This document shows positions 29,974 through 33,018 of a DNA stretch of 64,000 nucleotides, piece by piece; the stretch's first letter is position 1; each line of letters starts with the position of its first letter. Origin of the DNA: Octopus vulgaris (Eukaryota); assembly GCA_951406725.2 (NCBI GenBank), contig OX597832.1, forward strand, positions 39,618,001 to 39,682,000. The letters are read 5' to 3'. A program made the translations under genes and the position numbers. The notes below the pieces were generated by a model. The model ran no database searches and was not told where the DNA came from. It saw nothing but the letters and a program-made list of their open reading frames with translations.

Positions 29974-30190
29974 ATCCAAACAAGAAAACACAAAAAAACA
30001 CAACAACGCGAGGACGTGGAACAAATATAGTATTATTGGACGCTCAGGAAAGAAGGAAAGAAGGAGGGTTTAACGTTTCGAGCGGAGGTCTTCGTCGGAA
30101 ACATAGGAAGAAGGAAAGATCCAGAGAAGGGAAGACAGAGGAAAAAAAATCGCCAACGGTACACACGGGGTTACATTTTGAAAGACCGGA
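29970..30190 (-). mobile_element. Penelope-like pseudo-LTR fragment ending in (TA)n
   Basis: Contains a minimal hammerhead (30068-30102) and the TTTCCTGAGCG motif shared with 60650-60928. Confidence 0.7.
30068..30102 (-). ncRNA. Minimal type-I hammerhead ribozyme variant
   Basis: GUUU-CCGACGA-AGACCUCCGCUC-GAA-ACGU-U-AAAC: 4-bp stem I, palindromic ACGU stem III, U4->C core change, imperfect stem II. Confidence 0.6.
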
Positions 30191-30344
30191 AGGAATATAT
30201 ATATATTTGTGGGTGCATGTGTGAGAGAAAGAAGGGCAGCATGGGTGTGTGCCTGTGTGTCTGTGACTGACGAAACTATCGGTTCTTGAGTCACTTTAGT
30301 GATTTTTCTGCTTATTTATAAAACATGCATTCATGTTCTTTTCC

Positions 30345-31062
<718 letters not shown>

Positions 31063-31229
31063 GCTCTCTTAGTAGCATAGGTTCCATATTTTTGCAAATC
31101 GCTGAAACGCACAAACCTGTATATGACAGTTTTCACGTATACGCAAGAAGACACCTACACTAATATTCAAGGTATGTATCATACATACATAGACACACAA
31201 ATACAGATAGAAAGACACCACACACACAT

Positions 31230-31269
<40 letters not shown>

Positions 31270-31424
31270 ACACACACATGCACGCACACGGAATTTTGCC
31301 ACTGAACAAGTCGCGGTTTTAAAGCGACGAAAATATTTTGACAAACTAAATTTAAATGTTGATGTGAATCTACCAGTTTTTTGTGTGTTTTGAAATGGCA
31401 TATAAACACCTTCAACACTGCAAT

Positions 31425-31462
<38 letters not shown>

Positions 31463-31649
31463 TAATTAAGGGTTTAGCAACGAATTGCCTCACCAACACA
31501 CCGAATTTAGAAATAGCAGTCAAAGAGATATAGCTATTCCTTCTACTAAAAGGGGGATCTCAGTAAAAACACAGCACTTGAAAGGCAAACACAGACAGGT
31601 AAGAAAGAAAGAATGAAATGACGGCAATCTATCATGCAATTTTAAGTTA

Positions 31650-31741
31650 CCTACGGACGTACGTTTCGAGATCAAGTTTTAGGATAGCATAAGAATTAGA
31701 AAATTCTACTTTACCCAAACTTCTTCTCTCATCGGCGAAGG
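31650..31741 (-). ncRNA. Type-I hammerhead ribozyme (long stem II, CCGAUGA core)
   Basis: CCUUCG-CCGAUGA-[GAGA..AAGUUU ... AAACUU..UCUC]-GAA-ACGUACGU-C-CGUAGG: stem I 5/6 bp, palindromic stem III, GUC site. Confidence 0.72.
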
Positions 31742-32552
31742 ATACCACAATTATGAATAATTGTATATTAAATTTTGAGATACTAGAATGCATCATCTCA
31801 ACTCAGTGTCAGAGCGAGCCAAAGCATGACCAGTACCACGAAATTCAAAGTTTGAATGAAAGTTTGTGTCACCAGCCCCCTTCCACCCGCGTGTAGCCAA
31901 GACAAAATGCTGCGGTCATTTACTGGGATAAAATATGGTTATCAGTAATAATAAAGGGTGAAATTAATTAATTAGGGATAATTATCAATTACACCAAGTA
32001 GATTTCGGCATGTAAAAGCCCCATTCGAGGAAAATTTAAGTAATACTAAGTAATTAAGGGTTTAGCAACGAATTGCCTCACCAACACACCGAATTTAGAA
32101 ATAGCAGTCAAAGAGATATAGCTATTCCTTCTACTAAAAGGGGGATCTCAGTAAAAACACAGCACTTGAAAGGCAAACACAGACAGGTAAGAAAGATAAA
32201 TTCGGTGTGTTGGTGAGGCAATTCGTTGCTAAACCCTTAATTACTTAGTATTACTTAAATTTTCCTCGAATGGGGCTTTTACATGCCGAAATCTACTTGG
32301 TGTAATTGATAATTATCCCTAATTAATTAATTTCACCCTTTATTATTACTGATAACCATATTTTATCCCAGTAAATGACCGCAGCATTTTGTCTTGGCTA
32401 CACGCGGGTGGAAGGGGGCTGATGACACAAACTTTCATTCAAACTTTGAATTTCGTGGTACTGGTCATGCTTTGGCTCGCTCTGACACTGAGTTGAGATG
32501 ATGCATTCTAGTATCTCAAAATTTAATATACAATTATTCATAATTGTGGTAT

Positions 32553-32644
32553 CCCGCGCCGATGAGAGAAGAAGTTTGGGTAAAGTAGAATTTTCTAATT
32601 CTTATGCTATCCTAAAACTTGATCTCGAAACGTACGTCCGTAGG
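32553..32644 (+). ncRNA. Type-I hammerhead ribozyme, inverted copy
   Basis: CCGATGA 32559-32565, GAAA 32627-32630, CGTACGTC 32631-32638; stem I CCCGCG/CGTAGG. Confidence 0.7.
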
Positions 32645-32841
32645 TAACTTAAAATTGCATGATAGATTGCCGTCATTTCATTCTTTCTTTCTTACCTGTC
32701 TGTGTTTGCCTTTCAAGTGCTGTGTTTTTACTGAGATCCCCCTTTTAGTAGAAGGAATAGCTATATCTCTTTGACTGCTATTTCTAAATTCGGTGTGTTG
32801 GTGAGGCAATTCGTTGCTAAACCCTTAATTACTTAGTATTA

Positions 32842-32892
<51 letters not shown>

Positions 32893-33018
32893 GTATGTAT
32901 ATATACAGGCATACATATAAATAAACACATACACATATGTATGACTAAATATATAAACACATACATATATATATATAAATACCCACATTTACACACACAC
33001 ATGCAGACAGACAGATAG

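Follow-up and report, generated by a model that had tools for sequence, protein, structure and literature searches.

A palindromic insertion of a hammerhead-bearing repeat between (TA)n tracts of the octopus genome, and a fusion of its unit to a young Penelope-like element at both predicted cut sites

The closest described systems to the repeat studied here are the non-LTR retrozymes of animals and the EN+ Penelope-like elements (PLEs). The consulted sections of PMC7229834 and bioRxiv 10.64898/2026.07.22.740005 name the mobilising enzyme of animal retrozymes only as a proposal, and those of PMC8557442 call the function of PLE hammerheads unclear. Retrozyme monomers have been circularised by RtcB in vitro (PMC7229834), and target-site duplications of retrozymes are described as longer than 4 bp when present. 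The species named in the consulted text of Li, Clavereau and Pollet 2026 (bioRxiv 10.64898/2026.07.22.740005) include no mollusc; that study reports that Xenopus retrozymes resemble pLTRs. For PLEs, inverted insertions have already been described (PMC8557442), a dimer model of hammerhead cleavage has been put forward (PMC4209133), and a purified protein nicks and extends both strands, with two internal start sites (PMC11167929). Neither cephalopod retrozymes nor fusions between families at hammerhead cut sites were the subject of any paper returned by our literature search, whose coverage was incomplete.

The locus lies in a stretch of 64,000 nucleotides of Octopus vulgaris DNA (contig OX597832.1, positions 39,618,001 to 39,682,000; the window), from a 2.8 Gb, microsatellite-rich genome. 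The palindrome at window positions 31459..32845 is one ordinary young insertion of a non-coding hammerhead repeat. Its features are given below, with the unit numbered in RNA sense such that nt 1 is window position 32248 in the right arm.

31425..31460, no strand: left (TA)n target microsatellite (TRF period 2, 18 copies)
31459..32196, minus strand (RNA sense): left arm, a 150-nt 5'-truncated piece (unit nt 439-588) and one full 588-nt unit, whose 3' end (unit nt 588) abuts (TA)n
31650..31741, minus strand: left-arm type-I hammerhead, CCGAUGA core, 61-nt stem II region, ACGUACGU, predicted cut after 31656; a private change gives a U-U mismatch in stem I
32098..32196, no strand: unpaired 99-nt loop, the portion of the 5' piece in the left arm that has no counterpart in the right arm
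32197..32845, plus strand (RNA sense): right arm, unit nt 538-588 and a full unit (32248-32835), followed by the first 10 nt of a further unit and (TA)n
32553..32644, plus strand: right-arm type-I hammerhead, core at 32559-32565, predicted cut after 32638; a private change gives a C-A mismatch in stem I
32844..32895, no strand: right (TA)n target microsatellite, from repeat detection

The first-pass annotation had described a palindrome built from a 588-bp unit, with arms of about 640 bp, a loop of about 99 bp and about 3 mismatches, both ends abutting (TA)n. The inverted arms (31459-32097 and 32197-32835) were indeed 639 nt each with 99 nt between them, they differed at exactly 3 sites (31738/32556, 31739/32555 and 31872/32422), and TA tracts were found on both sides. 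A direct repeat of 150 nt (31459-31608 = 32047-32196) has a spacing of 588. The inversion joint at 32196|32197 is 5'-to-5' with no overlap, and both outer ends of the palindrome are 3' ends, at unit nt 588 on the left and nt 10 on the right. Also as annotated, the unit is non-coding, the longest stop-free stretch in the doubled 588-nt unit being 67 aa; its G+C is 217 of 588 bases (37%). No target-site duplication was discernible inside (TA)n at insertions of the unit.

The window contains other PLE-type insertions. An older 5'-truncated Neptune-type PLE at 30455-31132 (minus strand) has a GIY-YIG fragment (frame 30794-31132), a canonical minimal hammerhead near 30530-30505, and its 3' end in (AT)n at 30349-30454. 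A link between it and the palindrome was rejected: it inserted separately, is older, and nothing in it matches the unit. A second short PLE 3' end, at about 29965-30200 (minus strand), carries a CCGACGA-core hammerhead, a core also present in a young Neptune-type family of the genome, and ends in (TA)n. The (TA)n tracts serve as landing pads on which such insertions are stacked. Farther away, a 228-aa open frame at 11480-12166 (minus strand), adjoining a long (TTA)n tract, presumably represents the C-terminal part of a non-LTR retrotransposon protein, which it resembles.

Each arm showed the type-I hammerhead layout that had been annotated (CCGAUGA, a stem II of about 60 nt, a palindromic stem III and GUC), namely stem I (6 bp), CCGAUGA, the 61-nt stem II region, GAAA, the self-complementary ACGUACGU and GUC; stem III is palindromic and 2 bp long, and C17 of the predicted hammerheads lies at 32638 (plus strand) and 31656 (minus strand). 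The Rfam hammerhead families gave no match, either at the gathering score in the whole window or at E<=10 in 31300-33000, probably because the long stem II defeats the models. The motif is nevertheless supported, because stem I covaries in 10 homologues found by sequence: three of its six pairs were changed on both sides and 96.6% of cells were paired. In the slid-alignment control at most 39% of cells were paired, and since the rows are related we take this as support rather than as a probability.

Two of the three arm differences had been placed in stem I, and relative to the family majority each arm does have one private change, at adjacent sites, each breaking one stem I pair. This was not a family-wide pattern: across 69 loci, unit nt 306-311 were touched only by the changes at this locus and by one CpG change. 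Selection for a broken stem I was rejected, and we read the mismatches as decay of the palindrome copy at this locus, because no such trend was seen among the 69 loci. Older subfamilies, and relatives found by sequence, have the canonical CUGANGA core; U4C is present in the youngest expanding subfamily, and elsewhere in the same genome a sister family and a Neptune-type PLE have it too. The U4C core has been reported as less active while still permitting viroid infectivity (PMC3088659). The circular monomer was predicted to fold at -155.8 kcal/mol (z -4.7, 25 shuffles); the monomer's hammerhead fold was 3.9 kcal/mol less stable than its minimum-energy fold. Being self-complementary, stem III agrees with the dimer model of PMC4209133.

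A genome search with the unit gave 2,059 candidates; the 40 that were scored yielded 146 matches on many contigs, the full-length ones 95-100% identical. A 19-mer from the young core had 251 exact matches genome-wide and a 20-mer that the unit shares with older and sister families had 3,852, the reversed control giving 0 in each case. The first 100 of these 3,852 matches represented 61 unselected loci, comprising 36 single, 8 tandem and 17 head-to-head copies; tail-to-tail inversions were found at none of the 61. The 69 young loci were picked from the best matches and from hammerhead-bearing matches and are biased to long copies. Among them 37 were head-to-head palindromes, the commonest layout in this young-copy sample, and hence the palindrome is nothing special at this locus.

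The 109 arms of this sample had 3' ends at unit nt 588 to +13 (59 arms), at nt 96-119 (35) or elsewhere (15), and in 95 of them a TA-type repeat followed, in agreement with the (TA)n targeting proposed by the first-pass annotation. It had also suggested a search for permuted starts and tandem arrays elsewhere in the genome: 5' ends were scattered across the arms, 18 of the 109 arms exceeded two units (the longest being 3,680 nt), and arrays of up to six units head to tail occurred at dispersed loci, with a hammerhead motif in each full unit. Two words that are complementary by eye, at unit nt 541-549 and 35-43 (window 32788-32796 and 32282-32290), lie around the short 3' start region; they are kept in the sister family and in L086, and may form a structure that presents the priming site.

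Copying by a Penelope reverse transcriptase (RT) had been proposed as well. The PLE-type ends, the multimeric units and the young PLEs with RT and GIY-YIG in this genome favor the proposal; the palindrome layout is not special. A non-autonomous element had been proposed too, and at none of 96 loci (the 69 young loci and 27 older or cut-site loci) did a PLE RT/EN fragment adjoin the unit with no TA run in between; a PLE coding fragment lay nearby at 5 of the 96, always across a TA run. Contigs from a sequencing run of a second organism were at least 93% identical over the part of the unit compared. A look for expression listed no run on record as RNA that contains the unit. Fourteen sequencing runs guessed to be RNA contained 40-76% of the unit's words, and the contigs of one run covered 31498-32083; these could be of DNA origin and we do not rely on them. 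A splice-donor-like word occurs at window 32644 (unit nt 397), just past the cut site, and an acceptor-like word about 100 nt later, at 32748 (nt 501). Both kinds of word also occur, by eye, in the sister family and may mark a retained intron as in PLE pseudo-LTRs; no spliced joint at these words was listed in the run contigs, which indicate presence only. Together, these features identify the unit as a putative non-LTR retrozyme of an already known type, for which cleavage and circles are predicted.

The palindrome had also been regarded as a possible source of double-stranded RNA for editing by ADAR. The copies lend this idea no support, as the 140 locus-private substitutions in RNA sense included A>G 9 times and T>C 29 times (p 0.03), the reverse of the A-to-I signature. 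Misreading of U by the RT may be the cause of the T>C excess. The change 417A>G was considered as recurrent editing and dismissed, being mostly a subfamily marker.

What is new is a fusion of the unit to a young Neptune-type PLE family, here called N4, exactly at both predicted cut sites. It occurs in L197 (G000:C5:66722700-66726200), a palindrome whose unit part (nt 193-391) breaks off at C17, with foreign sequence taking over from there. In both arms this sequence is the 3' end of N4, starting at nt 1.1, the first base past N4's own predicted cut site. The unit and N4 have no letters in common at the joint, which is exact in the right arm and has G replacing C17 in the left arm, and the outer ends are N4's own long end on one arm and short end on the other. 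The N4 allele concerned has 4 exact matches genome-wide, split evenly between L197 and the N4 insertion L213. Most simply read, the joint would mean that each RNA was cleaved at its predicted site, after which the two were ligated or an RT jumped from one to the other.

A search for N4 gave 1,066 candidates, with copies 95-99.7% identical. Its unit is 4.6 kb (L311, frameshifted) and its hammerhead has a UUGACAA core and a 5-bp stem I. In one copy, L302, the RT+GIY-YIG frame is open over 713 aa; none of 21 loci showed an N4 ORF that is fully intact. The L302 protein has a C-terminal GIY-YIG, a DKG motif, a CX2-5CxxC linker and a CCHH motif, by which PMC8557442 characterizes Neptune in the sections consulted, the Hydra clade having DKT and no CCHH. 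By these motifs N4 appears to be Neptune-type rather than Hydra-type. Similarity between the unit and N4 is weak (63% over 104 nt) and AT-rich. We give N4 about even odds as the RT of the unit, a proposal that rests on one event; N4 is a candidate because at least two other young PLE families exist in this genome.

Other families were noted in the course of these searches. L085 and L090 (G000:C16) belong to a further young PLE family, in which open frames of 781 aa recur that are 59% identical to N4; its hammerhead has a UUGAUAA core. L061 (G000:C1:93329500-93337500) is a full-length Neptune-type PLE with a 949-aa RT+GIY-YIG ORF, and it adjoins a palindromic insertion of the sister retrozyme family, whose 547-nt unit has a CCGAUGA core and a covarying stem I. 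This genome also has more than ten further hammerhead types whose stem II is long (30-70 nt) and whose stem III is palindromic (L082, L086, L087, L112, L197, L241, L246, L267 and others), stem I pairing having been part of the search filter.

Further chimeras were sought in three ways. The search for the unit's 5' half followed by a purine succeeded in 1 of 12 hits, and that for the N4 3' half, run without a control, gave 5 hits, consisting of the 2 L197 arms and 3 inversion centres starting exactly at nt 1.1. A scan of the fetched loci found no clear additional case, a weak negative because its pattern also missed L197.

Copies beginning at the predicted cut site were sought genome-wide by pattern. 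Long copies starting exactly at nt 392 accounted for 7 of 20 hits; of the remaining 13, five had their end at nt 386-391, three were deletions, one was a substitution and four were short matches that probably arose by chance. Controls of the same design had no such copy among 7 hits at nt 380 and 3 among 12 at nt 402 (binomial p 0.02, from two controls that were sorted by eye). Around the cut site, the 109 arms sampled showed no enrichment of 5' ends (6 versus 4.3 expected). The excess is modest, and as a footprint of cleavage it is suggestive only. Dispersed fragments in L246, L247, L255 and L256 that matched the cut-site pattern by chance resemble the 5' start of 18S rDNA with upstream spacer. 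Together, the single chimeric event in L197 and the cut-site 5' ends suggest that hammerhead cleavage may occur in vivo.

The two arms of a palindrome appear to share a source. Subfamily was identical between arms in 32 of 33 callable palindromes, the exception being a 100-nt rearranged fragment, and locus-private variants were common to both arms at many palindromes. A short and a long 3' end were paired in 22 of the 25 palindromes with both ends classifiable (p 8e-5; 12 others had an unclassifiable end), the present locus being one of two short/short exceptions. Among N4 palindromes, 8 of 11 two-armed loci fetched had short/long pairing. Across the family the inversion joints are scattered, with small variable overlaps at the centres, which ruled out classic twin priming with a fixed joint. 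By analogy with PMC11167929, the short/long pairing would fit a dimeric PLE enzyme with two-strand nicking and two internal starts. The variant patterns of L169 (G000:C1:50429800-50437300) and L170 (G000:C1:115909500-115916000) have period 3 and period 2, respectively, and L005 is a mixed dimer with non-identical tandem units. These patterns fit multimeric templates or later duplication at the DNA level rather than a monomer circle, and the periods in L169 and L170 suggest multimeric circles or duplication in blocks.

Based on these data, we put the probability at roughly three in four that the palindrome is a retrozyme insertion written into (TA)n by a Penelope-like RT-endonuclease in trans, with the young Neptune-type family N4 as the best candidate. 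We infer the following course throughout. A tandem source copy would be transcribed and its hammerheads would cut, probably at a low rate and in dimeric form or aided by protein, because of the U4C core and the 2-bp palindromic stem III. The 588-nt monomer would then be closed to a circle, or the RT would jump end to end across the cut. A dimeric enzyme may nick both (TA)n strands and extend both 3' ends on RNA of one source, the starts usually lying in two regions about 100 nt from each other and synthesis running more than once round, after which the two cDNAs would be joined head to head.

An account that we consider unlikely, yet the strongest competitor, retains the same enzyme class and takes an uncut linear multimer from a tandem source array as the usual template, leaving the ribozyme largely a passenger and circles minor. 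It accommodates the periodic or mixed haplotypes within arrays L169, L170 and L005, the slower U4C core of the youngest subfamily and the 109-arm sample without a 5'-end excess at the cut site, and cleavage was unneeded for PLE insertion in vitro (PMC11167929). It is at odds with the cut-site chimera L197, the exact cut-site 5' ends (7 versus 0 and 3), the preservation of stem I through compensatory change, and arrays that reach six units at dispersed loci.

The first-pass annotation itself had asked whether the unit is always the pLTR of an autonomous element. That units are 5'-truncated pseudo-LTR arrays of an unsampled autonomous PLE we regard as improbable, given that none of the 96 loci continues into RT/EN sequence, that units stand head to tail up to six times, and that the ends of the fetched PLE families do not clearly match them. 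Nonetheless, those 96 loci come from a family with thousands of matches, Xenopus retrozymes resemble pLTRs (bioRxiv 10.64898/2026.07.22.740005), and the donor/acceptor-like words past the cut site in the unit and sister family (by eye) recall intron-bearing pLTRs. Finally, an assembly fold-back or a DNA-level inversion (breakage-fusion, MITE-like) without reverse transcription, for which speak the lack of a read or contig shown to span the palindrome centre and the variable small overlaps at inversion centres that also fit DNA repair, is highly improbable when the flanks are unmirrored, the arms differ in length, ends and 3 bases, and 37 of 69 loci have the same build, fixed 3' ends and the short/long rule.

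Returning to the trans-mobilised retrozyme, we tentatively propose, at somewhat less than even odds, that hammerhead-cut RNAs of different families may be joined in the germ line, by an RtcB-type ligase or an RT jump, and copied by N4 from both nicked strands with two start sites. If true, L197 would be a genomic fossil of PLE and retrozyme ribozymes cutting in vivo within the transposition cycle, an animal retrozyme would ride one specific, identifiable PLE, and new retrozymes could arise through halves swapped at the cut site. The element type and palindrome layout are already known, and it is the footprint that matters: the L197 fusion gives a concrete enzyme-RNA pair and exact predicted sites, making the hammerhead role and the mobilising enzyme directly testable.

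The unit has the short tandem hammerhead units, the non-coding low-GC sequence and the dispersed, recently mobile copies of non-LTR retrozymes. With the metazoan ones, as presented in the consulted sections of PMC7229834 and bioRxiv 10.64898/2026.07.22.740005, it shares non-coding tandem units with one type-I hammerhead each and no LTR layout, a GC content under 45-50% (here 37%), a predicted highly self-paired circle and proposed PLE mobilisation. At 588 nt it exceeds the 170-400 nt of PMC7229834 and lies inside the 51-972 bp range of bioRxiv 10.64898/2026.07.22.740005. Unlike the retrozymes described there, it has a 61-nt stem II region and, in the youngest subfamily, a U4C core; strict (TA)n targeting and two-armed insertions are without description for retrozymes in those sections. 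Retrozymes are characterised by expression as linear and circular monomer RNA; the unit is described here from genomic copies.

Its insertions are of PLE type, with fixed 3' ends and an optional tail, variable 5' truncation and an inverted 5'-truncated partner. EN+ PLEs (Neptune, Hydra, Naiad; PMC8557442, PMC4209133, in the parts consulted) likewise show 5' truncation, partial tandems, an inverted 5'-truncated copy, an optional 3' tail, a (TA)n bias and a hammerhead with a palindromic stem III. The unit differs from them in lacking an ORF, and with it the RT + GIY-YIG ORF between pseudo-LTRs of an autonomous PLE, in its tail of about 100 nt compared with 30-40 bp, and in its 6-bp stem I and long stem II compared with the minimal PLE hammerhead motif. 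The core substitution is that of the viroid U4C variant (as cited in Perreault et al. 2011, PMC3088659), and here it marks the youngest expanding subfamily. In the reported in vitro work on PAc Poseidon (Frangieh et al. 2024, PMC11167929, as far as consulted), insertion did not depend on cleavage and none of the reads had an end at the cut site, whereas here genomic copies begin or join at that site. The nicking and extension of two strands, the two internal starts and the predicted dimer of Poseidon match the two arms and two end classes of the insertions described here.
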